A stretch of 64,000 nucleotides of DNA from Gemmatimonadota bacterium (GCA_002727195.1 PBWH01000023.1:72268-136267); one strand, 5' to 3'. Shown: positions 526-60,927, counted from the first letter of the stretch. Notes: a model not told the origin generated them from the letters alone. Numbers and translations: made by a program.

Positions 526-2451
526 TCATTGCCTTACAAAGATCTGTTCGTGCGTGAGGGGGCGTCCCCATGCGCCGTGGGTTTCGCCGAACGAGACATC
601 CTCGGGAATATTACCGAGCCGGTTGTTCGCCCCCCAGACTCGGTAGGCAGCGCCGAGTGGGATGGCGGGGATCTCGTTCGTGTGGAGATCCCGAGCTATG
701 ATCATGTATTTGCGGAGCGTATCCGGATCAGTGGTGGTTGCGGCGAGTTCCATGGCTCTCGTAGCCTCGTGAAGCCACGGTGGGCCTTCTTCGCCGGCTT
801 TCGGATGCCAGTAGGGTTGGTTGGGACCCGTGATCGCCCACTCGAACCGATCCTGAAGCGGGTCGTCGGCGCCGTCATACCACCAGTAGTGCACCTCGAA
901 TTCACCGCTGTAACGGCGTGGTACGATGATGTCGCGGAGCGCCGCAAAGGTGTTCGCCTTGATGCCGATGTCGGCCCAGTGCTAGGTGACGAGTTCGGTG
1001 ATGTCTCTCGTCCCGCCCGCACTTACGATGTCCATGGTGAATTCGAAAGGGCTGCCATCCGGGAACTCACGGACGCCATCGCCATCCGTATCGCGATATC
1101 CCGCTCCCTCTAGCAAATCACGGGCCCGATCGGGATCGTATTCCGAGTTTCGCTTGAAGTGTTTCTCCGAGTAAAATGGGCTGGGCGGGTAGAACGAATG
1201 GCCTGCGGGGACCATGAACCCGTAAAAAAGCAACTGGCTGATTTCCTCGCGATTCAGTCCGATCGACATGGCCACCCGGACGTCCCGGTTCCGGAAGGCC
1301 TGGCGGACCATCGGGTCGGGCGCGTCCCAATTCAGGTAGAAGACCTGCGCGGGGGTCGGTCCTGAGAGGTGTACCGTGAAGTTTCCGGTCTCCCGTTCCG
1401 CCTGCTTGAGGGTCTGGAACATGTCGATCTGGGAATAGCGCCCGAACAGATCGAGCTCGCCGTTCATGAACTTCAGCAGGATGACCTGTTTCTCGGGGAT
1501 GACGGTGAACTCCAGGTTATCCACGTATGGCAGCTGGTTGCCCGCGGTATCCACCTTCCAGTAGTAAGGGTTCCTCTCGTAGACAACGCGTTGTCCACGA
1601 ACCCACTGTACGGGACGCCATGCGGCGAGTGTCGGGTTGCCTTCCGTATACAGAAACTGCGCACGGGTGGCGCGCTGCCGAAACTCCTCGTAGGTCGCGT
1701 TCGGGTTGTGTCGTGGGTGCCACTTCCCGTAGACGTGAAGTGGCAGGGCGAAGATATCGTGGCTGGCCAACCCGTAGAGGATCCGACCCATGGGTTTGTC
1801 CGCCGAGAACTTTAAGGTCAGGTCGTCGACCTTTTCGAGCTCGATCGGTTTGCCCCCCACCTGGTAGGCCGATGGGATGACGGAGCGGTCGAGAGGGCGC
1901 CCATCGTCGTCGAACAGCAGATCGTTGTAGAAGAAGAGCACGTCGTCTGCCGTGAAGGGATGACCGTCTGACCATCGAATGCCTTCCCGGATGTAAACGT
2001 AGAGTTCTCTTCCACCGTCCTTGAATTCCCACCGTTCGGCCAGGTTCGGCTCGATCGAGTCACCCATCGGATGGGAGAAGGTGAGCAGACCCTCGTCCTT
2101 CGCCTTCATGGTGGCAGGGACCTGGACGATGTCGCCGGTGATCGCGCGACGGATGCGGCCGCCATACGTTCCGATTTCCTTGAACGGTATGATGACCCGG
2201 GGATTCGGCGGCAGTCGGTCCGATACGGGAGGCAGCAAGCCCGCGTTGACCTCCCGGTCCCACATAGGAGACTGGGTGAACGCGCGTGATGCGAGGATGG
2301 CCGGATCGATCGCCATCGGCGCTCGCGTCTGATTGATGTCGAAGGTGAGCGCGGTCGAGGATGGACCGGTCCTGTCGGTGTCCTCCGGGGGATCGGCGGG
2401 CATACAGCCCAGACCGAAGGCGAGGAGAAGGATGTTAGTCCTGTTTGCCAA
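526..2451 (-). pseudogene. ABC transporter substrate-binding protein, family 5 (peptide/oligosaccharide type), interrupted by one in-frame TAG
   Basis: ORFs 982..2523 and 526..894 are in the same frame and are separated only by TAG at 982-984 (...TRDITELVT-TAG-HWADIGIKANTFAAL...). The combined protein is a full-length SBP_bac_5-like sequence. The N-terminus ANRTNILLLAFGLGC looks like a lipoprotein signal; the likely start is TTG at 2451. The longest ORF start, 2523, overlaps nfsA. Confidence 0.75.
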
Positions 2452-3196
2452 AGCCCTGTGACTTGAGGAAGACGTCCAGGTCCGAACGCCCGTGGAAGCG
2501 GCCGACGCGGCCGGACATGACACGTGTCCATCGCGGATCGCGATTGTGCATGCCCTGCTCGTTGTAGAAATCGATCATGGCCTGGTCGTAGGTCTCCATG
2601 TGGACGTGCATCGCATCGTCGTTGAGGTAGCGATCCCGGTGGAGGATGGCAGCCTGTGGTAGCCTTGGCTTGATGGTCGTGGGGTGTTCGGGGTCGGGGT
2701 ATCCGATACACAGACCCGATACAGCGAAGACGTGATCGGGGAGCTCGAGCAGTTCGCCGACCTGGATCGGGTTGTTGCGGATCGCCCCGATCATGCAGAT
2801 GCCGAGTCCGTGCGATTCGGCGGCTATGGAGATATTCTGCATGACGAGCGCCGCATCAACAGCGGCGATCATAACGGCTTCGATGTAGGCATCATCGAAT
2901 CGCTCGCCGTCGTGCATGTCGAAGGCCAGGCGATCGCGGTGCAGATCGGCGCACACGGCCAGGAATGCCGCACTCTGTTCGATCTGAAGCTGGTCCGCGC
3001 ACAGTTCGACCATCTTCGCCTTCCTGTCAGGATCGGTGACGTGGATGATCGAGTAGGCCTGGAGGTTGCTCGAGGTGCTGGCCTTCTGACCGCAGGCGAT
3101 CAGCTCTTCGAGCAGACCGTCCGGGAGCGGCTGATCGGTGTAGCGGCGGACAGAGCGATGGGAGAGGAGGAGGTCGGTGGTCGGGTTTGGCATCAT
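2435..3196 (-). CDS. nfsA: oxygen-insensitive NADPH nitroreductase / flavin reductase (NfsA/FRP family)
   Basis: ORF 2435..3262. MMPNPTTDLLLSHRSVRRYTDQPL...QKASTSSNLQAYSIIHVTD...FLAVCADLHR matches the NfsA N-terminal pattern. Start is probably ATG 3196 or 3193, with GGAG upstream. Stop is TAA. Confidence 0.8.
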   Translation of the reverse strand: MMPNPTTDLLLSHRSVRRYTDQPLPDGLLEELIACGQKASTSSNLQAYSIIHVTDPDRKAKMVELCADQLQIEQSAAFLAVCADLHRDRLAFDMHDGERFDDAYIEAVMIAAVDAALVMQNISIAAESHGLGICMIGAIRNNPIQVGELLELPDHVFAVSGLCIGYPDPEHPTTIKPRLPQAAILHRDRYLNDDAMHVHMETYDQAMIDFYNEQGMHNRDPRWTRVMSGRVGRFHGRSDLDVFLKSQGFGKQD

Positions 3197-3251
3197 CAAC
3201 TCCAGAGTTGGCACAACGGTCCCTTGATACGCTTTCTGCCGCCTTTTGGCG

Positions 3252-3294: not shown

Positions 3295-3310
3295 TGGGAT
3301 GAACGGCCCC

Positions 3311-5512: not shown

Positions 5513-6804
5513 ACCAGGAGCGTCCCGGCTGGCACGCACATGACGTTGGTCCGGATCTCAGACCGCAATTCCTTACCGGGTTCGCCGTGCGTGTAGAGGA
5601 TCATTGGTTGATCGACAGGATGGTGGGGGCCTGGTCTGGATATGGAGGGTAACCAGTTGGCCAGCGCCGGATCGGGTGTGCTGATCGGGCTGCCCTCGAA
5701 CGATTGCCCCCCGTCGGTGGAACGCAGGTAGAAGACCTCACTCGATGCGTGTCCCCAGTGTCTCTCGTCCGCGATCTGTGACGGCTGGACGGTGGTGACG
5801 ACCAGGTGCAGGTGGTCCTGCGTGTCGACCGTCATCATCGCCTCGACGGGACAGGCGTTCTCGGGAAGGTGCGTTTCCAATCGGATGGTGTCCCATCCCG
5901 TGTCCAGCCAGCGATTCAGCCAGATCCCGTCGTTCTCCAGGCCCGGGTTGAGCGTGACCGCCCAGAGCGTACCCACCGAGTCCAGCGTGATGTTGTACAC
6001 GTAGATATTAGCGTCCAGCGGTGGAATCGCGATTCGGTGGTCATACATCGCGGGGGTGTGCACCTGCTCACCTGCCAGCGTTGTCCAGGTGTCGCCTAGG
6101 TCTGTCGATTTCAGGACGCCCGCACCATACGAGCGCATGCGTGACCGATCTCCCGTGACCGGTGTGTTGTCGGTCCCGCCGATGTTGTAGAAGTGCGTGG
6201 CGGTATAGAGCGTGTCGTCCGGTCCGCACGTGATGTGACCGTAGTGGTGGGTGTATTGTGGTGAGATGTCCTGACCGAACAGCGCCCTGGCAGAGGTCCA
6301 TCCGCCGTTGGGTCGCTGGAGGTGGAACATCGTCTGGGGAGGATGCTCACCGCCACGACAAACGACGGCATCCAGACCCTGTCCCGTGTGGACGATCGAT
6401 GCCCCGGTCGCGTTGTAGCCGAAAGCATACCGTGATGCGTCATAGCCATCACCGGGTTCCTGCCACGCGTCCAGGCAGTTCGGGTTCAGGGATCGCGTCC
6501 ACTGTACGCGTGCCTGTTTCCAGTCTCCCGACCAACCGTGGGGTCCATAGGTCAGCCGGATGTGACCGTCTGCATCGGCGGTGATGCACGGGCAGGTATG
6601 GTTATCACAGCCGTCGCCGATCCGAATGATATCGGACCACGTATCGGATGCGTGGTCGTAGGTCCGCCCGCATACGGTGGTCACGGCGTCGAGCCAGACG
6701 ATGTGGGTGCGATCCCCGAGGGTCAGCACTTTGTTCGACCACGTGTAGGCGGTCGCACGCGTGGAACCGGTGGTCGAGAGGCAGAATGAGTCTGGTTGTT
6801 TCAC
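5509..6804 (-). CDS. BNR/Asp-box repeat beta-propeller protein (sialidase-like, BNR_4-like)
   Basis: ORF 5509..6804. Asp-box motifs STDLGDTW and STDGGQSF are present. The GTG start overlaps the GGCT stop as GTGA. Stop is TGA. Confidence 0.65.
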   Translation of the reverse strand: MKQPDSFCLSTTGSTRATAYTWSNKVLTLGDRTHIVWLDAVTTVCGRTYDHASDTWSDIIRIGDGCDNHTCPCITADADGHIRLTYGPHGWSGDWKQARVQWTRSLNPNCLDAWQEPGDGYDASRYAFGYNATGASIVHTGQGLDAVVCRGGEHPPQTMFHLQRPNGGWTSARALFGQDISPQYTHHYGHITCGPDDTLYTATHFYNIGGTDNTPVTGDRSRMRSYGAGVLKSTDLGDTWTTLAGEQVHTPAMYDHRIAIPPLDANIYVYNITLDSVGTLWAVTLNPGLENDGIWLNRWLDTGWDTIRLETHLPENACPVEAMMTVDTQDHLHLVVTTVQPSQIADERHWGHASSEVFYLRSTDGGQSFEGSPISTPDPALANWLPSISRPGPHHPVDQPMILYTHGEPGKELRSEIRTNVMCVPAGTLLV

Positions 6805-7289
6805 GCGTAGATGGCGAGTTCCCTTTCCCGGCGACCGGAATCGGGGTCCTTGTGTGTGGTCGTTGCTTCGATGGTTGAGATGTAGTCCGGGGGGAATCCT
6901 TGTTCCCGAGCGCCAATCAGAACGTGCTGGAGATACCAGGCATACGGTTTGATCGACGGATCAACGTCGAGGGCGATATAGGTGGTGGCATTAAGTGTTG
7001 ATCTGTCGGCGAGCGTGACGACGACGTCTTCCTGGCGATAGCCGGAACCCAGTCCCTCGATGCGATCCAGGATTTCCTTTTCAGAATCGTCGATGTCGTA
7101 GACGACCCCGATCACCGTTTCGCCCGGCGAGGGACATACATCTCCCTTGCCGGATCCGTCTCGGCTCACCTTGTGGAAGGCGAGCCGATAGTCCTTCAGG
7201 CTGGCGACGCCAATGACATCGGCAGCAATGCGGGATCGAATCCTGCGGGTCGAGAGGTTGGACCCGTAGGCGAAGTAGCGGATCCCGAT
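6801..7289 (-). CDS. gamma-glutamylcyclotransferase-like protein (GGCT/AIG2-like); start codon unresolved
   Basis: The track ORF 6801..7169 starts at an internal GTG. The conserved N-terminal motif (IRYFAYGSNLSTRRIRSRI...) lies upstream in the same frame. There is no ATG, GTG or TTG between it and the TAG (7293-7295) of the upstream gene. Candidate ATC starts are at 7289 and 7283, with GAAGGGG 8 nt upstream. Confidence 0.6.
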   Translation of the reverse strand: MGIRYFAYGSNLSTRRIRSRIAADVIGVASLKDYRLAFHKVSRDGSGKGDVCPSPGETVIGVVYDIDDSEKEILDRIEGLGSGYRQEDVVVTLADRSTLNATTYIALDVDPSIKPYAWYLQHVLIGAREQGFPPDYISTIEATTTHKDPDSGRRERELAIYA

Positions 7290-8910: not shown

Positions 8911-9371
8911 TCAGGAAGCCCTCATCACCTCACGAATTTTGGCAGCCTGATCCGCTCGGACCGCGTCCTCTACCCGCTGGCGTTTCGCCCCGTAAAGCCC
9001 ATCCGAATCATACCTCGGAAAGACGTGTGTGTGGTAATGCCAGACGTCCTGGCCGCCGGCTGGCTCGTTGTGCTGGCGCGTGGAGATTTCCGGACAGTCG
9101 AATGCGATCAGCGCCTGCGCGATTACCTAGATGGCTTCCTGGATCGGGATGTCCAGACTCGAGGGCAACGAATACAGATTCTCGATGTGCTCGTTGGGGA
9201 TGACGATAACGTGTCCCGGGTTGTTCGGCCACTGGTGGGATCCGACAAAGGCGGTGACGCTATCGGTCCTCAGGACGACGGCCGCTTTTTTGTACCGACA
9301 TCCGGCCGCTCCTCGCCGCAGACAATCGCGCAGAATGGACACTTGTACGGATCTGGCGGGTGATGCCTCAT
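8911..9371 (-). pseudogene. HIT-family hydrolase, disrupted (one frameshift plus one in-frame TAG)
   Basis: DPYKCPFCAIVCGEE (frame of ORF 9270..9455) continues after a frameshift in a T6/A6 run (9286-9291) as AVVLRTDSVTAFVGSHQWPNNPGHVIVIPNEHIENLY. Then comes TAG at 9127-9129, followed by VIAQAL...AGGQDVWHYHTHVFPRYD (the HxHxH histidine triad), ending at TGA 8911. Confidence 0.75.
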
Positions 9372-9676
9372 CGACCTCTCCAAACGGGTTAGACCTGAAC
9401 GCAAGCACATCAACCTTGTGATGTGGGAGCGACTCTCGCAAGCCGCAATACCCATTCCTAATCAGGATGCATTGCAACCGACAGGATGGTCCTCACACGA
9501 TACCGTAAGAGACCGTCCTTGATTCGGGAACTGCATACACCGTGTTTATCATACTGAAAAACAGTTGGTTACGGGTTTTCAGGTGCTTGGGGTACGTAAA
9601 TCAAAAACCTTGGTGGACGTCTGATCACTCACCATAGCGTGATAGCGTGAACTACAGGCGGTTTCCAGGGGGGTCA

Positions 9677-10096
9677 ATGCCGGGTCAACCAACCACGGCT
9701 ACCGACTACCGAAATAAGGTGCTCGTGCTCTGGTTTTTCGGCTAAGATTGTACTGGCTGTCTGGCTGCGGCTCCGGGGTTGGAGATCGAGATGCACCAGC
9801 GGAAACGCGACGAGGATCTCCAGATTCTCGGACTTGACATCTGGAACGGCTCCGCGGCTCAACTCACGACCTTCCAGACTACGACCGGTGCTACGATGCC
9901 GATGCTTCAGCAGGCCGGGAATCCCGTGTATCCGCTCGGGATGGACGTCTCCACGATCGCCGTCGTTGACAAGGAAGGGATTGTGCGTGGGCTCTATGGT
10001 GAAGAGGACCACGTCCAGGTTAACGCCAGGGTCGACTTGATCTTCGCGCAGGCGCCGCTGGCTGAAACCCGCCCACCTCACTCTATTACGGGATGA
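9677..10096 (+). pseudogene. thioredoxin-fold (TlpA/redoxin-like) protein with an in-frame TAA two codons before its CxxC motif
   Basis: Reading upstream of ORF 9779..10096 in the same frame gives ...TDYRNKVLVLWFFG-TAA(9743-9745)-DCTGCLAAAPGLEIEMHQ... This is a typical redoxin layout with a CTGC active site. Candidate starts are ATG 9677 and GTG 9647. Confidence 0.6.
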
Positions 10097-15438: not shown

Positions 15439-15976
15439 CCGGTCGTCGAGTTTGCATTGGAATCGAACGCGGCATTACTTCCGAACGGAATCAGCAATCC
15501 GCGTGTGACCGCTCACCCGGCGTCAACGATGGATATCTTCTCGACGCTCGTCGACGTCTGCGGTCTCGATGCAACCTTCCCGATCGAGCCTCAGGATGGA
15601 CGAAGTATTTTTCCTCTGTTCAGCGAGGAAATCGGTGAGCGAGAGACGTCGATTCCGTTCCGGTATTCGGGGTGGAGGCACGCTGATCGATAAAGATTTC
15701 GAAGTCGTGATGGAGAAGGTGAACGAGGATGCCGTCGAGTTCTACAACCTGGCCGTTTCACAGCCCGAGATTGCCGATCAAATGACGCAGACGCTGAAAG
15801 AGTGAAGTCTTTCGGTGGACCGAAGCCTGCAAGAGAAGGATTATCCCGAAGGGTCCATAACGATTCCGAGTCCGGAGCGCCGGCAGTGGATGCTCGACCC
15901 TCCGTATGCCGTCCTGATAGAGGAGTGGAAAGACCGTGCAGAGTTCCGGACACGTTACGAGGCCCTGAAAGGCTGA
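15439..15976 (+). pseudogene. sulfatase C-terminal remnant (frameshift plus in-frame TGA)
   Basis: ...HPASTMDIFSTLVDVCGLDATFPIEPQDGRSIFPLF... is the sulfatase C-domain. A frameshift near 15680 leads to ...FEVVMEKVNEDAVEFYNL...MTQTLKE, then TGA (15803-15805), then SLSVDRSLQEKDYPEG...YEALKG ending at TGA 15976. The N-terminal catalytic domain is missing. Confidence 0.65.
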
Positions 15977-15980
15977 GGCG

Positions 15981-16970: not shown

Positions 16971-17040
16971 ATACAAGTGGCGGATTCTGACATCACCCAG
17001 GTCCGAGCCTGGCGACGAGAGCCCGCAGTATGTCAGAAGA

Positions 17041-17056
17041 GCCGACCTCTGTCGGC
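17041..17056. terminator. GC hairpin in the convergent gap (GCCGAC-ctct-GTCGGC), next to a 9-bp inverted repeat at 16985-16993 / 17030-17038
   Basis: The perfect 6-bp stem is followed on the minus strand by TCTTCTG, downstream of sdaA. TTCTGACAT and ATGTCAGAA form a nested inverted repeat. No strong U-tract on the plus strand. Confidence 0.3.
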
Positions 17057-17133
17057 CCGGTGAGGGCCAGGATCGACTAGCGGCTCAGCCTGATGATTCG
17101 TGCTGCCCCTGTCCGCTTGCTACCAAGGAACAA

Positions 17134-18687: not shown

Positions 18688-18700
18688 GGGGTCTCCGGGC

Positions 18701-19657: not shown

Positions 19658-19675
19658 GTCGTTGTCCTTTCGTCG

Positions 19676-22206: not shown

Positions 22207-22398
22207 GCTTCTCGAACATTGTGCTTTGGTTACTAAGGATACAGGTCGTCCTGTGGAGCCTGACAGACCTGACAGGAACGCATATATATATCATCTTCGC
22301 TGCCGGCGATACCGCGGTGGTGCCTTTTGTCAAGGAGGTAAGGCGTCCCGAGCAGACCAGGTGATGGCGCTTTCGGCAGTATTCGACGGAGAACACGG

Positions 22399-23336: not shown

Positions 23337-23381
23337 GCAGCCGCCTCTCATTATCGACAGAAGAAATATTACGGAGCAACA

Positions 23382-25888: not shown

Positions 25889-25934
25889 GTTCGCTCTCCG
25901 TTGACGTCTGGAATACTCACATAAGAGGCATGCA

Positions 25935-26909: not shown

Positions 26910-27077
26910 AACGCCTCACTGACCATGTATGTGCTTTGACGAGGGTAAGTGTTCAATCGGAAATGAGGCCACTGTCGACGTCAGTTGTCAACGTATTCAC
27001 CACCTGATGCCAAGAATCTGGTATCGTGTGCCGCACGAGCCTTCAACCTACCCAAACACTCCTGCCCAAGGGTGTAA

Positions 27078-41878: not shown

Positions 41879-44710
41879 ATGCCAATCGAATATTCCGATC
41901 CCAAAGACTGGTCGCCGTGGGAACAGTTTCGTGAGCAAGTGGTGCATCCAGCGGGCACTATCAAGCGCGAAGACGTTGAACGCGCGCGTGAGAACATCGA
42001 TCGCCACGGGTGGGCGAAGACCTACGCGCAGGAACTGGAAGAGAAGGCGCAACGAATCGCGGCCAGGGTCGACGACGCCTACCTCCAGACGCTGATCGGG
42101 CTTACGACACCGGGCGCGTATGCCCCGTGTCCAGCCTGCCGGGCAAAGGGACTGCCCTGGCACCCGAACGGTCAATGGTCATGGGACCCGGACGAGCCGA
42201 ACCTCCTGACCTGCTCGTTCTGCAAGACGGTCTTCCCGAATGACGATCATCCGGAAGAGATCGCCATTCACTGCACTTGGGGGCGAGGTCAAACGTTCAC
42301 GTTCGTCGGAGGGGACACCTTCGAGTGCTTTGGGTATCTGAAGGCGCGACCGAGTCTTTCGGGCGTCACGCGGGCACGGAAGATCAGCCACATCACCTGG
42401 GAGCTGCAAGAGCTTTCCCTGGCCTACGCCCTGACCAGCGATGTCGCGTTTGCTCGAGCGGCCAGGGCGATCCTGCTTCGTTTCGCCGAGGTCTTTCCCG
42501 AGTATCTCGTCCGGGCGGGCTATGGCTATGGCGAATACGCCGGTATGGACCCGAAGGTGGCTGCCGAGCACATCGACAATCTGCCTGAAGACGAGCTCGT
42601 CTATCCGCCGAACGAACCGGATCGCAAGCTGTGGACCGGCTACTGGTCAGCCAGTCGGATGGGGTCGAACGGGATGGACGGCAGGTGGGTGGTCCGGGTG
42701 TCCGACGCCTACAGTCTGACCTGCCTGGCCGACGACGAGAATGGACCGGTGTATTCGGACGACGATCGCATTCGGGTGGAGCGGGATGTGATCCTCGAGG
42801 GCAGCTACCTGGCCGCGTGCGACATTTTGATCAACAACAAGGCGGTCGGAAATCGGGCCGGGGCCGGGGTGGCCGGACTCGTCACGGGACATCCGGGGCT
42901 GACCCATTTTGGTCTCGACGGGTTCGCGCGGGCGGTGGACGACTGGTTCCTGCCGGATGGCGGGAGCTCGGAGTCTCCGGCCTACGCCATGATGACGATG
43001 AACGGGATCCGTCCCTTCGCGTTCGCCTTCCGCGACTACACCGATCCAGAAGGCTACGATGGACCCCAGCGACTCGAGCATTGGAACGCGTGCCGGGACA
43101 CGCTGTATGGCGACTGCTGGCAGGATCTCGTCTGGACCCTCCAGGGCGACCTCCACTTTCCGCCATCGGCCGACTCGTATACCAGCACCACGATCAGTAC
43201 CTCTTTCGCCGATCTTCTGGCCCTTGCCTATGGGACGGACGATCATGTCGCCACGCTTCAAGAGATCCTTCAACGCAGCGAACAGGCCGATCATACGGCT
43301 GTTTTCTATCGAGACCCGGCTGTCGCGGAGAAGACGCCGGCGCCGGTGCATCTGCCTGATGTGCTTTTTCCTTACCTGAAGATGGGGCACCTGCGGACTG
43401 GTGATCGTGGGCGCGACAGTCTACTGCTCCTGAATGCGGCCGATCACGGCGTGCATCACCATTTTGACGGTCTGGGGCTGTATTACTGGAAGGACGGCCA
43501 CGAGTTGTTGTCGGACTTGGGCTATCTCTGGGATCACCAGGACAAGAACGAGACGATGCGTACGGCTGCGCACAACCTGGTGATGGTCGACGGCCAGAAT
43601 CAGAGCGGGCGCAATGAACGGACGGGTGCGTTCGATCTGTTTATGGTCACCCCGACGATCTCGGCTATGGAAGCGTCTTCCAATGCCTATGGTGAAGGGG
43701 TTTACAGGCGAACGTGTGTCCAGATCGACCACGGGCTGGCTGGGTCGTATGTGCTCGACATCTTCCGGGCCGGCTACGGGGCCCGCGCCGACTTCATTTT
43801 CCACGGGCCGCATCACGACTACAAGGTAGAGAACTTAGACCTGGCGGAAGCGGCTGATCCATCCGAACGCGTGTCGCTCAATGAAGACGGCCCTGATCTG
43901 ACCAAGCTGAAGTCAGGGCGAAGCGGTGAAAACTGGCAGTTCACCTGGTCGTGGGAAGACGGATACCAGTTCTGTGCACTCGTTCCAGGCACTGACAAGG
44001 AAGAGGTCTTTGTGGGAGATGGATGGGGGCAGCGCGACCACCGGAACTGCGATGTGGGTGCAACACTGCCGTATGTCATCCGTCGCGTCGAGGGCGATGG
44101 ACGTCCTGAGGCATTCGTATCGGCGTTCATTGGTGGCGAGGGTGATCAAACACTCTTGCGATCTCTAAGAGTACTGCCGGCCCCCGAGGGCGCACCGAGG
44201 GGAATGGTCGCGGTTGCCATCGAGACGGAACACGGTACCGATGTCGTCCTGTCCATGCTCGAGCCGACGACGGTAACCGTGTCGTCCGACCTTGGCGAAC
44301 TGACGGCGGACGGGAGGCTTGCCGTCATTCGGTCGGAGGGGGGCACGCCGGCGTCCGCCGTGCAGGTGGGGGGAACAGCGCTGTCGATTGGTGACGTGTC
44401 ACATGAATCCGATGGGGTCCTGTCGGGCACGGTCGTTGCGAACGGATCCCAAGCGGGTTCATCGTGGTTCGACCTCGACATCGAGGCCGGAAGGATGGAT
44501 GGGCTGACGGGGCAGGTTCTGTTCGCCATCGCAAAGGATGGTCCGCACGGGTATGAAATGCGCGAAATCCGGCCTCACGAGTCAGGTACGCGTGTCTTCA
44601 CGAAGATCGACAACGTGGGTTTTGAAGCCCGGCGAGCGGAGCGATTCGAGATTCCCGTTGTCTCCTCCTGGGAGAGCAGACAAGACTCGAAGGGCGGCGA
44701 AATTGGGTAA
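41879..44710 (+). CDS. heparinase II/III-like polysaccharide lyase-family protein (alpha-toroid + Hepar_II_III domain + C-terminal beta domains)
   Basis: ORF 41804..44710; the start is ATG 41879 behind GAAGGAGG. It contains ...ADHGVHHHFDGLGLYYWKDGHELLSDLGYLW...AAHNLVMVDGQNQ, typical of the Hepar_II_III domain. Leaderless. Stop is TAA. Confidence 0.75.
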   Translation: MPIEYSDPKDWSPWEQFREQVVHPAGTIKREDVERARENIDRHGWAKTYAQELEEKAQRIAARVDDAYLQTLIGLTTPGAYAPCPACRAKGLPWHPNGQWSWDPDEPNLLTCSFCKTVFPNDDHPEEIAIHCTWGRGQTFTFVGGDTFECFGYLKARPSLSGVTRARKISHITWELQELSLAYALTSDVAFARAARAILLRFAEVFPEYLVRAGYGYGEYAGMDPKVAAEHIDNLPEDELVYPPNEPDRKLWTGYWSASRMGSNGMDGRWVVRVSDAYSLTCLADDENGPVYSDDDRIRVERDVILEGSYLAACDILINNKAVGNRAGAGVAGLVTGHPGLTHFGLDGFARAVDDWFLPDGGSSESPAYAMMTMNGIRPFAFAFRDYTDPEGYDGPQRLEHWNACRDTLYGDCWQDLVWTLQGDLHFPPSADSYTSTTISTSFADLLALAYGTDDHVATLQEILQRSEQADHTAVFYRDPAVAEKTPAPVHLPDVLFPYLKMGHLRTGDRGRDSLLLLNAADHGVHHHFDGLGLYYWKDGHELLSDLGYLWDHQDKNETMRTAAHNLVMVDGQNQSGRNERTGAFDLFMVTPTISAMEASSNAYGEGVYRRTCVQIDHGLAGSYVLDIFRAGYGARADFIFHGPHHDYKVENLDLAEAADPSERVSLNEDGPDLTKLKSGRSGENWQFTWSWEDGYQFCALVPGTDKEEVFVGDGWGQRDHRNCDVGATLPYVIRRVEGDGRPEAFVSAFIGGEGDQTLLRSLRVLPAPEGAPRGMVAVAIETEHGTDVVLSMLEPTTVTVSSDLGELTADGRLAVIRSEGGTPASAVQVGGTALSIGDVSHESDGVLSGTVVANGSQAGSSWFDLDIEAGRMDGLTGQVLFAIAKDGPHGYEMREIRPHESGTRVFTKIDNVGFEARRAERFEIPVVSSWESRQDSKGGEIG

Positions 44711-44779
44711 TCGTTAAGATTCTCAGGGATACCGAGCTGGTGGGCTGGGGAGAAGCGACGCTCGAAGGCAAGGAGCGGA

Positions 44780-44954
44780 CGTGTCCTCGGGCGTCAACCA
44801 GGATGAGCTGGTAGTCTTCTGTCAGCGCCTCTACATATCCATAGTATCGCCAGTCTGAAAGCGTTCTGGAAAAGCCGTGCTGCAGGAGGATCGGCGGTTC
44901 GTTTCGCACGACCTCATAGTGAATTCGGACCGTGCCGTTTAGTGCGAATGGCAT
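44780..44954 (-). pseudogene. alpha/beta-hydrolase N-terminal fragment (3'-truncated)
   Basis: MPFALNGTVRIHYEVVRNEPPILLQHGFSRTLSDWRYYGYVEALTEDYQLILVDARGH is a typical abhydrolase start up to the DxRGHG motif. Sense is lost after that, and the frame runs into the convergent heparinase-like gene. Confidence 0.6.
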
Positions 44955-47362: not shown

Positions 47363-48233
47363 CTACTTCTCTGCGAGACTGGCGATGGCTTCGCGAAGGT
47401 CATCGACAAATCGTGGCCGTCGGGCGTGGTAGAACGCACGGAGTGTCTCCTCGTCCAGGCTTTGCGTGTGGAGCGTATCTGTGGCCAGGGGTTGGTCTCG
47501 CAGATACGCCTCACACGCGGCCAGGGCGGCTTCCGCCTCAGCTTGGTTAGATTCCGAGGGTGTGTTTCGATAGGCACGCAACCGGAAGTAGGCCGCGACC
47601 CATAGCGGTTTATCCTAGCCCGCTGTCTCGCCTCCTCGAAGTATCCCGTGTATTCCAGGTAATGCTCTGGTGACGTGGCGGATCGGAAGGGAGCGATCTC
47701 TACCAGGCTTTGCGCGGCCAGTCGCTCCGCCATCCGCTTTTCTGCGACACTTGCCGAAACGGCCTCGTCGCCTCCTGCTTTTAGAAGACTGTCGATTCGG
47801 GCAAACTCCGGATCATCCGACCAGATGGCCGATGAATGATGGATCAAATGGCTGTCGGTGTAACGGATGCAGGGAGCCAGCGTGCCCGTCCAAAATCCGA
47901 GCGTTTAGCTGTTGGCGCAGGTCATGTCGAAGGTCCGCTTGTAGCCCTCTATTGCGATTGCTGCGACTTTGGCATCGCCGTAATACGGCTTGAAGAAGGC
48001 ATCCCACAGCGGATCGATGTCGGTATCGGGATCACCGATGAGGTGGTTGCAGACGAACAGGTTGAACTCACGTGCGGTACCCTGGTTTGTCGAGAAACCG
48101 TCGTCGATCCGGGGAACGACACCTACCAGCCCGAGGTCACGAGCGCGTTGGATTTCCCGCTGGTAGTACGTGGGGCAAGCAGGATCGACCTCCGGTTTCC
48201 GCCTGTTTCGTTGTAGAGGTCGAGCTTGAGGAT
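47363..48233 (-). pseudogene. unidentified enzyme remnant (in-frame TAA and at least 2 frameshifts)
   Basis: The long conserved-looking frame ...CPTYYQREIQRARDLGLVGVVPRIDDGF...DPLWDAFFKPYYGD...FDMTCANS is followed by TAA (47905-47907). It continues TLGFWTGT...SAIWSDDPEFARIDSLL.... It then shifts near 47590 to ...AEAALAACEAYLRDQ...DDLREAIASLAEK (ORF 47363..47581). A possible start at ATG 48296 would require another TAG (48234) and another shift. The family was not recognised. Confidence 0.45.
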
Positions 48234-48339
48234 CTATTTGCGTATGTCGAAATGTGAACTGGCCTGAAGGAGCACCCCGACCAGCCAGGCGATCATCCTG
48301 TTCTTTGTAAACCTCAATTGCCTGAACCTGTTTGCGCGG

Positions 48340-49212
48340 TCATTGCAGCTTCTCCCAGCGCGCCAACACCTGACGCGCTCGATCGACAACGGGCTTGTCG
48401 ACCATCTTGCCGTCGTGGATGAAGACGCCCTGCCCTTCATGTTCGTATGTGGCCGCGGCTTCGACCAACAATCGATACGCCGCGATTTCCTCTTCCTTGG
48501 GTGTGAACCCTTCGTTGAGAATGTCGACCTGACGGGGATGAATGCAGAAGCCGCCAGAAAAGCCGAGCGAGGCCGCCTTCTGTATCCAGGCTCGGAACGT
48601 GTCGGGGTCGTCGTAGACGGCGATGGACCCCGGATAGCCAATCGGGACGACACCCGCTTCACGCGCGGCGTAGAGGATTTGCATGTTCGGGAAGTATAAC
48701 GCGTTTTCAGTGACCTGCCCGCCAATTTCTGTGGCGAGATCCTCCATCCCGATACCCATCGCAGCGAGTCGTCCCGTTGACTGAGCGATCTCGCGGGCAT
48801 TCAGGACACCGGCAGCAGATTCGATCTGGGCGATCAGCCGGATGCCCCCTAACTGCAGACCCCGGTCTGACTCCAGGGCAGTAACCCGCTCATCGATCGA
48901 CAATAGTGAATCCGCGGAATCGACCTTGGGTATCGTGAGTGCAGCGGTGGCGTGTGTGACCGCGGCCTCGAGATCCTGTTCCAACAGGTCTGGATGCGTG
49001 TTCACTCGAACGGCCCCGACGCGACCTGCTGCGGAAATCCTCTGGATATCCTCTGCGGCTGAAGCCCTCGCATCCGCCTTCCCGTTGGGCGCAATCGCAT
49101 CCTCCAGGTCGATTTGGAGGACGTCCGCGGGTCCACGGATCGCGCTGTCCAGGTATCGCGCGTTACCGGCGGGGACGAACAACAGGGATCGACAGACATC
49201 CGTGTCAAACAT
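48340..49212 (-). CDS. HpcH/HpaI aldolase / citrate-lyase beta-subunit (CitE)-like acyl-CoA lyase family protein
   Basis: 290-aa ORF. RSLLFVPAGNARYL...DLEDAIAP...IPKVDSA...IAQIESAAGV...GMEDL... follows the CitE/HpcH motif order. Confidence 0.8.
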   Translation of the reverse strand: MFDTDVCRSLLFVPAGNARYLDSAIRGPADVLQIDLEDAIAPNGKADARASAAEDIQRISAAGRVGAVRVNTHPDLLEQDLEAAVTHATAALTIPKVDSADSLLSIDERVTALESDRGLQLGGIRLIAQIESAAGVLNAREIAQSTGRLAAMGIGMEDLATEIGGQVTENALYFPNMQILYAAREAGVVPIGYPGSIAVYDDPDTFRAWIQKAASLGFSGGFCIHPRQVDILNEGFTPKEEEIAAYRLLVEAAATYEHEGQGVFIHDGKMVDKPVVDRARQVLARWEKLQ

Positions 49213-49594
49213 CCGTGTGCTCCTTGGGGGACGCGATCTCTGAAAGGATTTCGCTCAAGTGCTCTCCCATTTTGGGCTCCTGTCTCCTCAACCGCCCCGG
49301 TGTCTCTGACAGCCTGGGTGTGGCAGCTGCAACGGGACAGTCGGGGATATCGCTGTCGTCTGTCCGGTCGAACAGCCCGCGGCCCTCCGCATACGGGTGA
49401 CCCACCAGATCTCCCACCCACAGCACGGGTGCCACGGTCACTTTCTTCTCGTCCATATGAGCAAGATGGTCGCCGAGAAGCGCGTTTGCGAAGTAGTCGG
49501 ACAGGGTCTCGTCTCCTCAGGACCAGATCCCATTATTGGCTGGCCAACCGTGGTATCGGCCTTCCTTGACTGAAACGACAACGTTATCACTCAC
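49205..49594 (-). pseudogene. BNR/sialidase-like protein N-terminal fragment with an in-frame TGA (tentative family call)
   Basis: GTG 49594 opens VSDNVVVSVKEGRYHGWPANNGIWS, then TGA (49517-49519), then GDETLSDYF...HLAHMDEKK.... The frame ends after about 130 codons, overlapping the CitE start. The GWP...GIW-W-GDE pattern is from my recollection of sialidase-like families. Confidence 0.4.
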
Positions 49595-49619
49595 GACGTA
49601 ACTTGAAAGCTTCCGTGCA

Positions 49620-51725
49620 CTATTCCTGGATGACTACCGTGTCGAGAGCGAGAACCTCGACAGATGCGTCCCCGATCTCGATGGTCTTTTGGGTAGATGT
49701 GAAGTTTGCGACGACCACAGCGAATCCGGTGAGTGACCGGAAACGATAGGCGCGCAGGCCGTCGTCATCCGTCTTTACTCGCTCGACACCATCGCCCGCG
49801 CGACGGGCTCCCGCGCGTCCCTGACGAATCACGCACGCGTAGTCGCGGACAGTGCGACCAGCCGCCTGATGTCTGAGAAATATGCGGTCCTGGAGCAGGT
49901 TCTTCCATCGTTCGGGCGAGTTCCGTTCCGCGGCGTCCTCATACAGCAGTTGTAGACCGTCGGTCTCGATCCCCAGGCAGCCCGCTACCTTGATCCAGGT
50001 CGAATCGGTTTCGATCACACGCGCCTTGCCTCCTACGCCACGCACGACGCGACGTCCACCGTCGAACGAAATGGTGACCCGATTGTCGTTTACGAAATCG
50101 TTCATGATGTATAGGCCAAAGCCCTCGTTCACCGACAATTCGATGTCGGCAACGGTCCGGTCGATCACAATCGAAGTTTCGCCATCCTCGAGCGCGACGA
50201 CGGCAATCGACTGCCGTACCGCGCCATCTGCGTACTCAATCACGCCGGTGGTCGAGAAGCCTCGATCCGTCGTGCGATCGTTGTGGTAGAGGGGATGCGG
50301 TTTCAGACGCTCACCTTCGACCTCGAATCGGCCGACGAACGCGTCCTGATCTGACCCGAGCGTATCCTCTCCGCCCGCGGGGACCACCATGCCCATCACC
50401 TGGCGCTTCAGGGATCGCCAGGCGAACGAGAACAGTCCCTGTTTGCTGCGGCGAACCTGAAGCCAGACGTAAGGATAGTCGTCCGTCCCAATCTGTTCGC
50501 GCCGGAACTCTGCCTCTGAGATGGGCTTGAAGTCGGGAATGCCGGCGATCACGAGAATGCCGAGCAGTCCCATGATGCCCGTCTCGAACTGGAAGTAACG
50601 TCCTCCGGCAGCGTAGGGCATCCGAGCGTTGAATCGGCCATCCCCGGCCGCCCGCATCGACTCGTCCAGATACTTGAGGTTCTGCCAGAGGATGTGTCCG
50701 GCAAAGCGATCGCCGAACTCCTCGAACATAACTGCGTGCTGAACCTGGATATCGGGCTCGTGGTAGGTCCAGTCCTGGCCGGACGGATACGCGGTGAACC
50801 CGTTGAACAGGAAGAAGCGACGGAGCACGTCGTAGGCATCCTCGATGTGGTGTAGGTAGTGGGGAGGTGGCTGCCGCCCGGTCAGCTGGAAGGCGAGTCG
50901 TCCTTGCAGCAGCAGGACGCCGCACCCGAGGTAGCCGGGATGGAATGAGCCGTGGTTTTCGACGGTCAGGTCGGGGTGTGCCGTCTGGGTGCAGATCCAG
51001 TCCTTGAGCGGCCGGCCATCAAACGGGCTGGTGTCGACCCGATCTCGGTCGGTCGTGAAGGTGTTCATGGCGAACAGTTTGCCGCGATACAGCCATTCTT
51101 CCGCGTTCGGGTGATCGGGCAGGAGACAGTATGACCACGCCAACAGGTAGGCGTCCCACGCGTTCTCCTCTTCCTTGGTGTCGATCCAACGACCGTCAGG
51201 CGGATCCACACCCACGAATCGGTCGCCTTCGAAGGCCAAGACGCGGTAGAAGGCCTCGAGCACGTTCTTGTCCAGACTCTCCGCCACCTGGTGTACCGCC
51301 ATCGCGATGTCGGCAACCCAGAGCGACGATTCCCAATCATCCCCCCATTGACCGTCCCATTCGAACGGCTTTGTCCGTCGCGCCCCACTCACGTGATGCG
51401 CACAGATCCAGCGTATACATCTATTCAGCCTGTCGAGCAAGTGTGGCTTGTCGACGCCTGCAACGGATGCATCGTAGTGCTCGCTCTGATAGAGGACTGC
51501 GTACCCGCGGAGCTCATCGCCCAACGAGCGGATGATCATTTCGTTGATCGGGCCGCCGGCAGGCTTGAATTCGTTCTCGTCTAGGGTGCCGAAGTAGCCG
51601 TATTCATCGTCCTCGTCGACCCAATACTGTTCGATGTAGGGGACGTGTCGACACATCATCTGTACGAGATCGGCCTCGGACGGGAAGGATGGTGAATCTG
51701 TATCGAGCGGCGGGTATGCGATCAT
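49620..51725 (-). CDS. (alpha/alpha)-toroid + beta-sandwich protein, polysaccharide-lyase-like (heparinase-III/PL-like fold, family unknown)
   Basis: 701-aa intact leaderless ORF. The helical N-terminal half contains ...TVENHGSFHPGYLG... (Asn-His...Tyr type centre). The C-terminal half is beta-rich. The ATG overlaps the upstream stop as ATGA (51722-51725). Stop is TAG. Confidence 0.55.
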   Translation of the reverse strand: MIAYPPLDTDSPSFPSEADLVQMMCRHVPYIEQYWVDEDDEYGYFGTLDENEFKPAGGPINEMIIRSLGDELRGYAVLYQSEHYDASVAGVDKPHLLDRLNRCIRWICAHHVSGARRTKPFEWDGQWGDDWESSLWVADIAMAVHQVAESLDKNVLEAFYRVLAFEGDRFVGVDPPDGRWIDTKEEENAWDAYLLAWSYCLLPDHPNAEEWLYRGKLFAMNTFTTDRDRVDTSPFDGRPLKDWICTQTAHPDLTVENHGSFHPGYLGCGVLLLQGRLAFQLTGRQPPPHYLHHIEDAYDVLRRFFLFNGFTAYPSGQDWTYHEPDIQVQHAVMFEEFGDRFAGHILWQNLKYLDESMRAAGDGRFNARMPYAAGGRYFQFETGIMGLLGILVIAGIPDFKPISEAEFRREQIGTDDYPYVWLQVRRSKQGLFSFAWRSLKRQVMGMVVPAGGEDTLGSDQDAFVGRFEVEGERLKPHPLYHNDRTTDRGFSTTGVIEYADGAVRQSIAVVALEDGETSIVIDRTVADIELSVNEGFGLYIMNDFVNDNRVTISFDGGRRVVRGVGGKARVIETDSTWIKVAGCLGIETDGLQLLYEDAAERNSPERWKNLLQDRIFLRHQAAGRTVRDYACVIRQGRAGARRAGDGVERVKTDDDGLRAYRFRSLTGFAVVVANFTSTQKTIEIGDASVEVLALDTVVIQE

Positions 51726-52832: not shown

Positions 52833-52906
52833 TTGCTCGCTCCCGTGTAACGCGTTGGCAGGCGTATCCGATCCAGCGGTTCATGGTCCTTCGGTGCTGT
52901 TCCCCA

Positions 52907-53160
52907 TCAGGTGGGCGGACAGGTCGTATCGATCTGTTCCAGTACTGATTTGTCCAGTTTTCCTGTTCCGGCGGCCGCGTTCTGCTTGGCCTGATCGGGC
53001 GTTCTCATACCCGGGGACGTCCGGATTGGCGAGCGTAAACTTGAGCGCGAAGTCGACTACGTCCGATCCTTCAGGCACGAGGTCAAGCAGTGCCGCCACC
53101 TTTTTCCGGTTGGCTAGGAAGCTGTCGTGCTGGCTTTCACCTGAGTTCCACTTGTCGCGG
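52907..53160 (-). pseudogene. aldo/keto reductase C-terminal remnant (frameshift in a G4/C4 run)
   Basis: ...VAALLDLVPEGSDVVDFALKFTLANPDV is followed by a shift at 53013-53016. It continues ...PGMRTPDQAKQNAAAGTGKLDKSVLEQID..., the typical AKR end (IPG.....Q...N). The N-terminal roughly 70% is absent. Confidence 0.55.
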
Positions 53161-53304
53161 ACTTAGACCCTGTGATTTGCTTCGTCTCGTTTTTTCACGG
53201 TGGGCTCCTGTGCTTTGGATGAAGATAGCAAGGATCTACGGCCCTTGGTAGGGGAAGTCAAAATCCAAAATGTAAAAGGCAAATTGGGGGTGGTGCCTCC
53301 GGGG

Positions 53305-54033
53305 ATGAGGCGGCTACGATACAAGGTAGCCGCGATTCTTTCGGGGGGCGTTGCGCGAGCCAAGCAGGCGGTTTAGCGGGTGTGGGTGAGGATGTATTGG
53401 GAGCTCGGTGGGGACCTTGACGGTTACTTGATCGAACACGGTAAGGGATACGGGGAGCAGGTGTTCCGATTGGTGGCTGTGGAGCACAACCTCACCCCAA
53501 GTCTCGTTTACGATGCGCTGAGATTCTATCGTCGTGTCCCAAATTCCCACATGTGTGGAAATTTAAGTTGGTCCCATTTTCGGCTGGTCCTGTCGGTCGA
53601 GGATGATGAGGCGCGAGAATACTATCTGGACCAGGCGGTCCTTCGATCCTGGAGTGTTCGGGAGTTGGCCCTGTAGGTTAGGTCTAAGGTTTACAGACAG
53701 CTCGGTCCTCTGTCGGACACACTGATGGTCGACTAGGGTTTCTCGGCTCTCGCCTGGTGGAAGCTGCGATTGCGTGGGATCGACTGCCCGGAGATGAATA
53801 CGGTTGCCGGTTGGCTGGCTCGGTTGTTCCTTGTCGAGACCCTTTCGCCCGTGGCTCGGTTCGTGGTGACGACGCCGGATGTGGATCTCTACGATCGGTA
53901 TTTGGCGGATGTGTTTGTGTTGGATAGAGAGACGGATCCGCGGGTGACCGCGATGGATGGGGTGTTTGTGAATCGGGAGATGATCGGGGAGGGTGTCGCG
54001 CGGGTGTGGACGGACGAGAAGCCGGAGTTCTAG
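53305..54033 (+). pseudogene. DUF1016 (YhcG) N-terminal domain fused to a staphylococcal-nuclease (SNase)-like domain; three in-frame TAG codons, no frameshift
   Basis: One frame runs from ATG 53305: MRRLRYKVAAILSGGVARAKQAV-TAG(53374)-RVWVRMYWELGG...GYGEQV...LSWSHFRLVL...EYYLDQAVLRSWSVRELAL-TAG(53674)-VRSKVYRQLG...TLMVD-TAG(53734)-GFSALAWWKLRLRGIDCPE...DLYDRYLADVF.... It ends at TAG 54031-54033. The WSVRELxxQIxS pattern predicts Gln at the second TAG. Confidence 0.6.
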
Positions 54034-56065: not shown

Positions 56066-56838
56066 TTGATTCTGATCGTGGATGATGAGGCCTCTGTCAG
56101 GGGCCTGATTCGACGGTTGCTGACCAGTGTGGGATATGACACGCGGGATGTGGGCTCCGGACAGGAAGCGCTCGAGGTTGCCCGGTCGGAGCAGGTCGAC
56201 CTCGTGGTCACCGACGTGAAGATGCCGGGGATGAATGGCATCGAGCTGTCCAGGACGCGTCTGGAGGAGAATCCGGATCTTACGGTTCTGCTCGTGACCG
56301 CGTATGCAGATCTGAACAGCGCCCGTGAAGCGGTCACGGCCGGGATCTACGAGTATTTCACCAAACCGTTCGACACGTCGGATATGCTGAACAGCATCCG
56401 TCGTGGCCTGGACCACCGCAAATTGGCCAAAAAGAACGAGGCTTACAAGGACGGGCTGGAACAGAAGGCGGTGGAGCGGACGAGCGAGCTCAAGAAGGCC
56501 TAGGCTGAGCTGATCAAGAGTGAAAAACTCAGTGCGATCGGCCGTCTTGCGGCGGATATCGTGCGCGAGGCCCTGAATCCGTTGACCGTTGTCAAAGGCT
56601 GGGTCGTCGAGATGCTTCTGATGGTTGAAGGCCTGAGCGAGCGACAGAGGCTCTCTCTCGCCATCTGCGACGAGCAGATCAACCGCTCGATCCGGATCCC
56701 AACTTGCCCGTGGTCAAGATGAAGGGCTATTCCGATCGACATAAACTCGGCAGCGATCGCGACCGGGACGAAATCCTGATCCGCAAGCCAGTGATTGTTG
56801 ACACACTGGCATCCGTGCTGGATCAGGCTTTGCGGTAG
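56066..56838 (+). pseudogene. decayed hybrid sensor kinase: intact receiver domain, then TAG, then a HisKA/DHp remnant (His replaced), HATPase deleted, and the tail of a second receiver
   Basis: The receiver domain is ILIVDDEASVRGL...DLVVTDVKMPGMNG...KPFD. TAG at 56501-56503 is followed in frame by AELIKSEKLSAIGRLAADIVREALNPL, where the consensus is AHEINNPL, so His is replaced by Arg. After a frame change near 56690 it reads DPNLPVVKMKGYSD...ILIRKPVIVDTLASVLDQALR and ends at TAG 56838. Confidence 0.7.
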
Positions 56839-56872
56839 ACGCAGACCCAGGCGCGGCATCATAGAGCGGGAT

Positions 56873-57007: not shown

Positions 57008-57041
57008 TGCATTGGCAGGCCTACTTGAAGATGCGGCAGCT

Positions 57042-59876: not shown

Positions 59877-59928
59877 CAACGCCTGTATCTCACCGAAACC
59901 ACATCGTTCCCGTTGTGTCCAATCAGGC

Positions 59929-60927
59929 GTGCTCAGCAACTACCTAACAGTTGTCATCAGGAACCTGCGCCGTCACTGGGCTTACGCCCTGATCAACGTG
60001 CTCGGTCTGGCGATCGCCTTGACCTGTGCCCCGCAGATCCGAGCTACGTCCGTCACGCGCTGACTTACGATGCCCACCTTGACACAGCGAAACGCGTGCA
60101 TCGCCTGGTACGCCTGGATTCGACAGGACCGGACGACGATCCGTACTGGACGGAGACCCACAGCGCGAGAGCGATGGTGGTCTCCGTCCGTGAGGTCCCC
60201 GGTATCGAGAGTGCAATCAAGATGTTCTCACGGGAGATGTGGGTGTATCACGGCGACCAGAGCCGTAAAGGGCTCGCGGCTTCGCCGACACGGCATATGT
60301 CGACTACCTGGGCTACGCGGCGGTCGAGGGCGATCCACGCGAGATCCTCAGGCGTCCGGGATCGGCGATGATCATGGACTGACTTTACCCTCACGTCACG
60401 TGCGGACGAAATCCAGCGCGTGTTTACGGCTTTGCCGGGCCTAATCGATGCGACGGCATGTCACCAACCCTTGGGCGGGTGGGCAAACGCAGAACGCCAA
60501 ACTGTCTATCGAGAGAGTCGACCAGAAGAGTCCTACTACATCGCGTGCGACGAGCACTTTCTCGACACGTTCGGACCGGAGTTGATCGAATGGCCGACAC
60601 TTAGACAGGGCGTCGAGGGCACCGAATGCATCATCAACGAGCGCGCCGCGGATCGGCTCGGATTCTATCTACCGGCAGGTTCAAGCCTCCCGAGAGTATC
60701 CCCCCTAGGGTCGCGCATAAGTGTCGAGTGGTCCGGGATGCGGGAAGTTGTAGGGGTCGTACGGAATTTCCAGCACGGAACGCTTCGACGGGGGATCGAA
60801 CCGCTCATTGTGGTCTGATGTTAACCGCGGGATCGTCGTGAGCCTCGCGCTGGCCTTTGGTTCGGTCGCCTGGCAGGCGTGGTCCGCGTCCCGAATGAAC
60901 CCCGTCGACGTCCTCCGAGCGGCATAA
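59929..60927 (+). pseudogene. MacB/FtsX-type ABC transporter permease, collapsed remnant (multiple frameshifts and internal deletions)
   Basis: GTG 59929 opens LSNYLTVVIRNLRRHWAYALINVLGLAIALTCA, the typical MacB-like N-terminus. Periplasmic-domain fragments follow in other frames, including ORF 60420..60818. The C-terminal tail ...SRMNPVDVLRAA ends at TAA 60927. The locus is about 1 kb, against my recollection of about 2.4 kb for intact family members. Confidence 0.65.

Follow-up and report, generated by a model that had tools for sequence, protein, structure and literature searches.

Probable pseudogenes among constrained catabolic genes in a 64-kb window of an uncultured marine bacterium

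Pseudogene formation under relaxed selection is known for redundant or niche-specific genes of free-living bacteria, and pseudogenes occur on a larger scale in the recently host-restricted Mycobacterium leprae, Sodalis glossinidius and Shigella. Among reassigned genetic codes, TGA stands for Trp in Mycoplasmatales and certain other bacteria with reduced genomes and for Gly in Gracilibacteria/Absconditabacteria, and TAG is read as Gln in some phages. Regions for polysaccharide utilisation that are rich in sulfatases and glycoside hydrolases (GH) vary between closely related marine strains. Here, we investigate the disrupted genes of a 64,000-nt stretch of DNA (GCA_002727195.1, PBWH01000023.1:72268-136267; the window in the following) from an uncultured marine bacterium, for which a first-pass annotation had reported 17 internal stop codons, more than 12 frameshifts and several truncated remnants.

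The window resembles the known cases of bacterial pseudogene formation in that it combines nonsense codons, frameshifts and truncation by deletion with an age series that runs from single-hit genes to fragments. It also shows the drift towards AT, the neutrally evolving dead genes, the constrained neighbours and the independent hits to one gene in sister lineages. It differs from decay of the M. leprae, Sodalis or Shigella type, i.e., no expansion of insertion sequence (IS) elements is seen, the organism appears to be a pelagic heterotroph with a large genome and is no known symbiont or pathogen, and the high lesion density is shown for about 64 kb with flanks that look normal. As in reassigned-code genomes, there are in-frame TGA codons at Trp and TAG codons at Gln positions, but the stops of the window still terminate genes, replace at least six amino acids, co-occur with frameshifts and lie in frames that evolve neutrally. 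With regard to the turnover of polysaccharide-utilisation regions, the window is likewise rich in sulfatases, lyases and glycoside hydrolases, and its strains differ by a multi-gene deletion. In contrast to such turnover, it decays in place and leaves relics, with neither a clean presence/absence of cassettes nor signatures of mobile elements.

We consider it highly probable that the disruptions are genuine pseudogenes, which arose by ordinary decay under relaxed selection within a near-clonal, ocean-wide population and which lie amid constrained catabolic genes. The metagenome-assembled genomes (MAGs) of this bacterium are labelled by their depositors as 'Gemmatimonadetes bacterium' (locus tags CME19_) or 'Candidatus Latescibacteria bacterium'. 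The window holds many genes of polysaccharide and amino-acid catabolism; dominant functions are sulfatases, a heparinase-like lyase, GH109-like and GH67M-like enzymes, and sugar-acid and amino-acid catabolic enzymes. In the window itself, some 16 of 56 loci (29%) are disrupted, and in the population consensus about 14 of 56 (25%), that is, fewer than the third of all loci that had been claimed. Roughly 13.5 kb (21% of the window) is pseudogene DNA. All 17 internal stop codons are found with the reported positions and strands, and at least 12 frameshifts show up as a change of frame within Pfam or tblastn alignments. The latter comprise one in the HIT gene, at least two in the M42 gene, about four in the sulfatase remnant at 27 kb, one in the remnant at 15.3 kb, two each in the GH67M-like and the FtsX/MacB remnant, and one, assigned by eye, in an aldo-keto reductase (AKR) fragment.

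For each stop, the upstream and downstream open frames were translated, and read-through translations (stop replaced by X) were scanned against Pfam. A codon-usage frame plot was too noisy at 60% GC; the gene layout was taken from public gene calls and Pfam. Pfam provides the homology of the disrupted genes for SBP_bac_5, HIT, AhpC-TSA, M42, Sulfatase, DUF1016_N, CoA_transf_3 and Response_reg, while full-length homologs provide it for the propeller, GH67M-like, FtsX and response-regulator/histidine-kinase genes. No Pfam match with E < 0.01 was obtained in the remnants at 15.3-16.0 kb, 47.3-48.3 kb and 59.9-61.25 kb or in the N-terminus of the propeller gene; homolog searches later identified three of these four regions, the exception being the 15.3-kb remnant. 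The disabling lesions lie inside conserved regions, i.e., alignments span the stops, pieces of one domain change frame, and fragments cover their profile or homolog incompletely.

Exact-protein look-ups led to contigs from independent marine metagenome assemblies (Tara Oceans with different assemblers, JGI, Logan and NCBI, the latter with GCA_002348785.1, GCA_001039925.1 and GCA_001757145.1 among the matching records). More than 30 contigs from different samples and assemblers jointly span the whole window with an identity of 99.75-99.97%. In every covering contig (4 to 11 per site), 14 of the 17 stops and all four homopolymer sites at which frames break are identical.

We also compared this main clade with a sister clade, represented by three independent assemblies (ERZ842402, JGI 3300020473 and GCA_003444455.1) with 98.2-99.5% identity to the window. 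Based on 599 single-nucleotide polymorphisms (SNPs) between the two clades, intact genes show 177 nonsynonymous (N) and 227 synonymous (S) differences, i.e., a pN/pS of 0.25, with 97/78/229 SNPs at the three codon positions. The old disrupted frames show N 33 and S 15 (odds ratio 2.8, Fisher p = 0.0012 vs. intact genes). SNPs are denser in old pseudogene DNA (1.48%) than in intact genes (0.80%), a 1.9-fold difference (p = 2e-8). Between-clade insertions and deletions (indels) that are not a multiple of three are all found in pseudogenes or intergenic DNA, and the larger indels of intact genes keep the frame. That is, the broken frames evolve neutrally, while the neighbouring genes stay under purifying selection. 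Base composition is in accordance with the earlier remark that decayed stretches are AT-richer: these have a GC content of 58.3% vs. 60.2% for intact genes (Mann-Whitney p = 0.012), and the sulfatase remnant, the worst case, is at 53.0%.

The sister clade covers 15 of the 17 stops. Eight of them are sense codons there, namely 23099 GAG (Glu), 25094 CGA (Arg), 25496 TGG (Trp), 27965 CAG (Gln), 36410 TCG (Ser), 47905 TAC (Tyr), 49517 TGG (Trp) and 53674 CAG (Gln). The other seven (9127, 9743, 27152, 48234, 53374, 53734 and 56501) are stops in both clades and therefore older. The sister clade has also gained lesions of its own. Its propeller gene carries a truncating +1 insertion at 24675 and W198R at an invariant Trp, and indels of a length other than 3n are present within its HIT and sulfatase relics. 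Furthermore, it lacks 7,342 bp (window 15591-22932), a deletion bounded precisely by two copies of the 10-bp repeat CGATCGAGCC (window 15581-15590 and 22933-22942), of which one is retained (contig L030, 9694-9703). Lost are ORF329 and the genes for a serine dehydratase, a DHDPS-like protein, an MR_MLE protein and an M24 peptidase, all intact in the window, along with parts of two pseudogenes.

Ordered by age, the disrupted loci form a series. The youngest class consists of strain-private single stops in otherwise perfect genes. The SBP_bac_5 solute-binding protein gene (526..2403, minus strand) has a window-private TAG at 982, which corresponds to residue 531 and is spanned by the SBP_bac_5 domain (residues 174-571). 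Position 983, a T in the window, is G in 8/8 other assemblies, which gives TCG (Ser) and a called intact gene of 625 amino acids (aa). Likewise, a TAG at 36410 is private to the window in an 850-aa gene (34118..36670, minus strand), for which all 8 main-clade and 2 sister assemblies carry G instead of the window's T at 36411, i.e., TCG (Ser) in an intact gene. Next is the LamG/beta-propeller-like gene (24218..25945, minus strand), a young pseudogene fixed in the main clade with TGA at 25094 and 25496 and no frameshift. Over 100 intact homologs of about 556 aa were found, the best of which shares 80% identity over 96% of the query. Stop 25496 replaces a nearly invariant Trp (12/12 aligned homologs), and the homologs have Arg opposite 25094 in 10/12 cases.

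The older, multiply hit class comprises the HIT, M42, sulfatase, GH67M-like, FtsX and response-regulator/histidine-kinase loci. The HIT-family pseudogene (8911..9492, minus strand) combines a TAG at 9127 with a frameshift at the T6 run 9286-9291. Its domain (profile positions 5-97 of 98) runs across 9127, while the N-terminal CPFC motif is in a different frame; once the frameshift is corrected, the sequence aligns with PDB entry 1y23 over residues 3-124. Neither lesion varies among the assemblies, the sister clade included. The Peptidase_M42 pseudogene (22390..23290, plus strand) shows at least two frameshifts and a TAG at 23099, which is spanned by the domain. Its Pfam pieces (profile 22-292 and 207-249) lie in two frames, with the switch at the C5 run 22432-22436. 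Even more decayed is the sulfatase remnant (26990..28015, plus strand), which has pieces in all three frames, a TGA at 27152, a TAG at 27965 and a frameshift at the T6 run 27566-27571. Two of its Pfam Sulfatase pieces (74-125 and 141-233) do not share a frame, and a frame switch is seen at this run. The domain spans 27152, which aligns with the Trp of the GKWHLG motif in PDB sulfatases; the sister clade lacks the C at 27661.

The GH67M-like remnant (47372..48251, minus strand) is 5'-truncated, with two frameshifts, a TAA at 47905 and a TAG at 48234. It corresponds to the C-terminal 300 residues of a 541-aa protein: homolog P0164 (55% identity) aligns over 241-535 in frames -3, -2 and -1. Position 47905 is a conserved Tyr in this alignment. 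The stop at 48234 is in frame and polymorphic, with TGG in two main-clade assemblies (L017 and L020) and Gln in P0164. For the FtsX/MacB-type ABC permease remnant (59989..60818, plus strand), at least two frameshifts and an internal deletion are found. The 349-aa homolog P0172 (FtsX and MacB_PCD) aligns in three frames with residues 1-19, 21-103 and 98-129, and the rest is absent. At the 3' end of this remnant (60810-60829), the sister clade is about 80 bp longer, an indel in pseudogene DNA. The response-regulator/histidine-kinase pseudogene (56078..56722, plus strand) has a TAG at 56501 and has lost its ATPase domain. Its homolog P0175 (387 aa, intact, 51% identity) aligns unbroken across the stop with residues 3-212, such that the sequence continues past 56501 into a HisKA-like segment, and residues 213-387 are without counterpart in the window. 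Between the clades, the response-regulator part shows 5 nonsynonymous and 1 synonymous difference.

Bare fragments form the end of the series. The family III CoA-transferase fragment (49205..49633, minus strand) is C-terminal and matches only profile positions 282-365 of 366. The TGA at 49517 lies at its upstream edge; here, the ORF of the sister clade is 129 aa long. An initial reading of 49517 within BNR repeats was dropped, as the site borders this CoA_transf_3 fragment according to Pfam. The first-pass annotation had named four bare fragments. Two of them are present by eye: an alpha/beta hydrolase N-terminal fragment (44598..44954, minus strand), cut off where it meets the end of the heparinase-like gene, and an aldo-keto-reductase-like C-terminal fragment (52850..53100, minus strand), whose frame breaks at the G4 run 53013-53016 in six-frame translation. 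The former has a typical N-terminus (…PPILLQHGF…LILVDARGH…) that is followed by non-coding-like sequence. The other two did not hold. EEP (23382-24194) has essentially complete profile coverage and looks like a whole 270-aa protein, and CorC was not found in the window, where the open reading frame (ORF) at 75-482 encodes an intact 23S_rRNA_IVP protein. The BD-FAE esterase (31549-32421) was ruled out as a fragment as well, again with essentially complete coverage.

Further disrupted loci are the following. A TlpA/AhpC-like redoxin pseudogene (9638..10096, plus strand) has a TAA at 9743 that is spanned by the AhpC-TSA/Redoxin profiles, faces Ser/Thr/Ile in PDB alignments and is also present in the sister clade. 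In a short two-frame remnant (15509..15976, plus strand), the TGA at 15803 is invariant across main-clade assemblies, and one end of the sister-clade deletion falls within it. It is possibly a sulfatase C-terminus, an uncertain assignment given that the best PDB sulfatase match for 15.3-16.0 kb is weak (E = 0.18) and Pfam yields no match. The DUF1016_N and SNase-like nuclease pseudogene (53176..54033, plus strand) contains TAG codons at 53374, 53674 and 53734. DUF1016_N (profile 6-136 of 137) spans the first two, and the SNase domain follows the third; in the sister clade, 53374 and 53734 are stops, too. DUF1016_N is usually followed by another nuclease domain than SNase. The thermonuclease-like SNase domain at 53770-54033 (plus strand) gives the gene the look of a domain-swapped nuclease that is now dead. 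Weaker cases among the stops are 27965 and 53734, whose frames connect without a break to the sulfatase C-terminus and to the DUF1016-SNase linker, respectively, and which no domain spans. A GGACT/AIG2-like gene (6801..7229, minus strand), absent from the first-pass list, may tentatively be added as a start-loss pseudogene: the sister clade has an ATG start and 142 aa, the window has Ile at the start codon, and the clades differ by 7 nonsynonymous and 0 synonymous changes.

Strain comparisons show directly how such a series comes about. Point mutations (GC to AT wherever polarised) make nonsense codons, indels of one base, in several cases within short homopolymers, shift the frame, and microhomology-mediated deletions then remove pieces or whole blocks. 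In addition, selection would no longer purge lesions in the affected genes, which would allow their fixation in the nearly clonal, ocean-wide population. What is lost would be dispensable, probably redundant functions, selectively, and not the whole region. The locus had been described as a catabolic island in an early stage of decay; the early stage does not fit, and the island is not supported. Strain-private stops coexist with multi-frameshifted fragments that predate the clade split of 1-2%, and the stretch shows no tRNA, no integrase and no GC discontinuity. GC is 56-63% throughout without a step, and neither integrase nor transposase is among the Pfam annotations of the called genes.

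Among the alternatives, genome-wide reductive evolution survives best, although we regard it as unlikely. Here, a recent bottleneck or a restriction to hosts or particles would have raised the lesion load everywhere, and the window would be a sample of it. The identity of about 99.9% across many ocean samples, i.e., a nearly clonal population, is in line with this, and so are lesions that still arise and spread (private and polymorphic stops, parallel loss in the sister clade), a further split gene, DUF3179, outside the window, and the sponge symbionts included in the related candidate lineages PAUC34f and Poribacteria (PMC7081726). On the other hand, lesions are far less dense in the flanks, no IS elements are seen in or beside the window, and the intact genes show normal purifying selection with the above pN/pS. 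Seven normal-length genes occupy the left flank (7.5 kb), and one gene in about seven is split in the right flank (8.8 kb). The split gene, a probable pseudogene, consists of ORFs of 61 and 186 aa (contig L044, 15389-16555; about 2.6-3.8 kb past the right end of the window). Downstream of it, we observe dsrM-like, dsrK-like and DsrC genes as well as a cysteine-desulfurase-like gene. Somewhat less likely still is the specific variant of a cosmopolitan, near-clonal Latescibacterota/PAUC34f-like lineage amid genome-wide reduction, of which sister clades independently lose the same genes and for which the window is representative. Related lineages that are sulfatase-rich and have large genomes have been described (PMC7081726). 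A literature search for pseudogenes in Latescibacteria yielded nothing relevant.

Errors of assembly, polishing or consensus building in a single assembly are a very improbable source of the stops and indels. Such artefacts would be compatible with the absence of stops 982 and 36410 from all other assemblies, with private single-base indels of the window at 23363 and 32585, and with the location of four frameshifts in homopolymers. The latter had led to the caveat that some lesions may be consensus errors. Since independent assemblies agree across samples and assemblers, 14 of the 17 stops and the four homopolymer sites are not consensus errors, such that the caveat is removed for most lesions and still applies to 982 and 36410. 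The private indels at 23363 and 32585 are outside coding sequence, and the private SNPs are clustered as in strain-level recombination, unlike random error. Clusters private to the window are found at 20971-21409, 38874-38905, 50609-50614 and 55026-55053 (e.g., 7 SNPs within 440 bp in the M24 peptidase gene), which suggests short recombination tracts and shows that the window stands for a distinct strain genotype.

For ten nonsense changes, a variant allele is available for comparison, i.e., the eight sister-clade codons, TCG at 982 and TGG at 48234. All ten are GC to AT changes: six are C:G>T:A transitions, the type that had been put forward for the stops in general, but four are C:G>A:T transversions. 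The direction at 48234 is uncertain, since the sister clade has TAG as well and the outgroup homolog shows Gln. No syntenic outgroup was found in a scan of a genome contig collection with a 702-aa protein (nearest relatives are 32-39% identical, and the species is absent there), an exact look-up of a 701-aa protein returned no record, and the genomic contexts of the closest intact propeller homologs show no synteny with the window and are unusable for the ancestral states of its neighbours.

Stop reassignment or efficient read-through (TAG = Gln and/or TGA = Trp), with the affected genes expressed, is hardly credible. A replacement of Gln or Trp, as read in the first-pass annotation and as needed for recoding, is observed for Trp at 25496, 49517 and 27152 (TGG also segregates at 48234) and for Gln at 27965 and 53674 by homologs or the sister clade. 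However, Arg (25094), Glu (23099), Ser (982 and 36410) and Tyr (47905) are replaced as well, and homolog alignments place a Ser/Thr-like residue opposite 9743 and Tyr opposite 56501. In total, TGA aligns with Trp three times and with Arg once, TAG with Gln, Glu, Ser, Trp, Tyr and Pro/Gln, and TAA with Tyr and Ser/Thr, i.e., with at least six different amino acids. Each stop codon is also found at the end of intact genes (TGA 18, TAG 10 and TAA 9 among 37). The internal stops (TAG/TGA/TAA 10/5/2) occur in the proportions of random mutation, as single-base changes under the codon usage of the window would yield TAG 52%, TGA 22-29% and TAA 18-26%; a TAG excess as a hint at recoding is ruled out by this expectation. 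The affected genes are also frameshifted and truncated, the disrupted frames have an N:S of 33:15, and no tRNA gene is present in the 64-kb window. This agrees with the first-pass annotation, which had argued against a reassigned code. No more credible are phase-variable contingency loci, in which homopolymer tracts reversibly switch genes: four frameshifts do sit in T6, C5, T6 and G4 runs, but these tracts are short and invariant in length in all main- and sister-clade assemblies, and the genes carry further stops and frameshifts, so restoring one tract would not rescue a gene.

Some points weigh against our preferred reading of genuine pseudogenes formed by ordinary decay. Loss of function is inferred from the sequence. 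Stops 982 and 36410, both TCG>TAG and window-private, could be consensus errors or rare alleles. The flanks together contain one split gene in about 14, and a high lesion density is shown for about 64 kb only. Both the propeller frameshift and the 7.3-kb deletion of the sister clade were read in one contig; three more have mostly the same neighbours. Finally, several small fragments (AKR, abhydrolase, the 15.3-kb remnant) are assigned weakly or by eye. Taken as a whole, the finding is a well-documented case of a known process, with its main alternatives excluded.

Other differences between strains concern genes that are not counted as disrupted. At the 3' end of the heparinase-like gene, a 54-bp indel at 44694/44695 alters the protein's C-terminus; the segment is absent in the window and in contigs L013, L017 and L021, and present in L012/L020, L014-L016, L018 and the sister clade. 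A 495-aa gene (7293-8780, minus strand) shows a between-clade synonymous divergence of 0.18, compared to about 0.02 elsewhere, with a pN/pS of 0.13, and looks like a divergent allele acquired by recombination. Two in-frame deletions, one of 21 and one of about 45 bp (55401-55423 and 55683-55710), separate the clades in the pentapeptide-repeat gene at 55299-55829 (176 vs. 154 aa), which is repeat-number variation and not decay.

For the proteins of the source MAG (MBS13907-MBS13946, CME19_20225-20420), the steps in locus tags and accessions between three anchor genes are equal (22 and 17). The deposited annotation therefore appears to flag no pseudogenes here and to list the fragments as separate coding sequences. 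Gene fragments of the lineage accordingly appear in public as separate 'hypothetical proteins', e.g., a 166-aa LamG, a 172-aa M42 and a 141-aa response-regulator entry, and the numbers of sulfatases, peptidases and transporters could be overestimated in metabolic reconstructions of this group, which is distributed worldwide. The near-clonal main clade, the sister clade at 1-2% divergence and dozens of assemblies allow a time-ordering of nonsense, indel and microhomology deletion events, which makes the locus a useful natural example of the loss of dispensable catabolic genes in an uncultured marine bacterium. If the load were genome-wide, it would indicate that an abundant lineage of the ocean has recently changed in lifestyle or population size.

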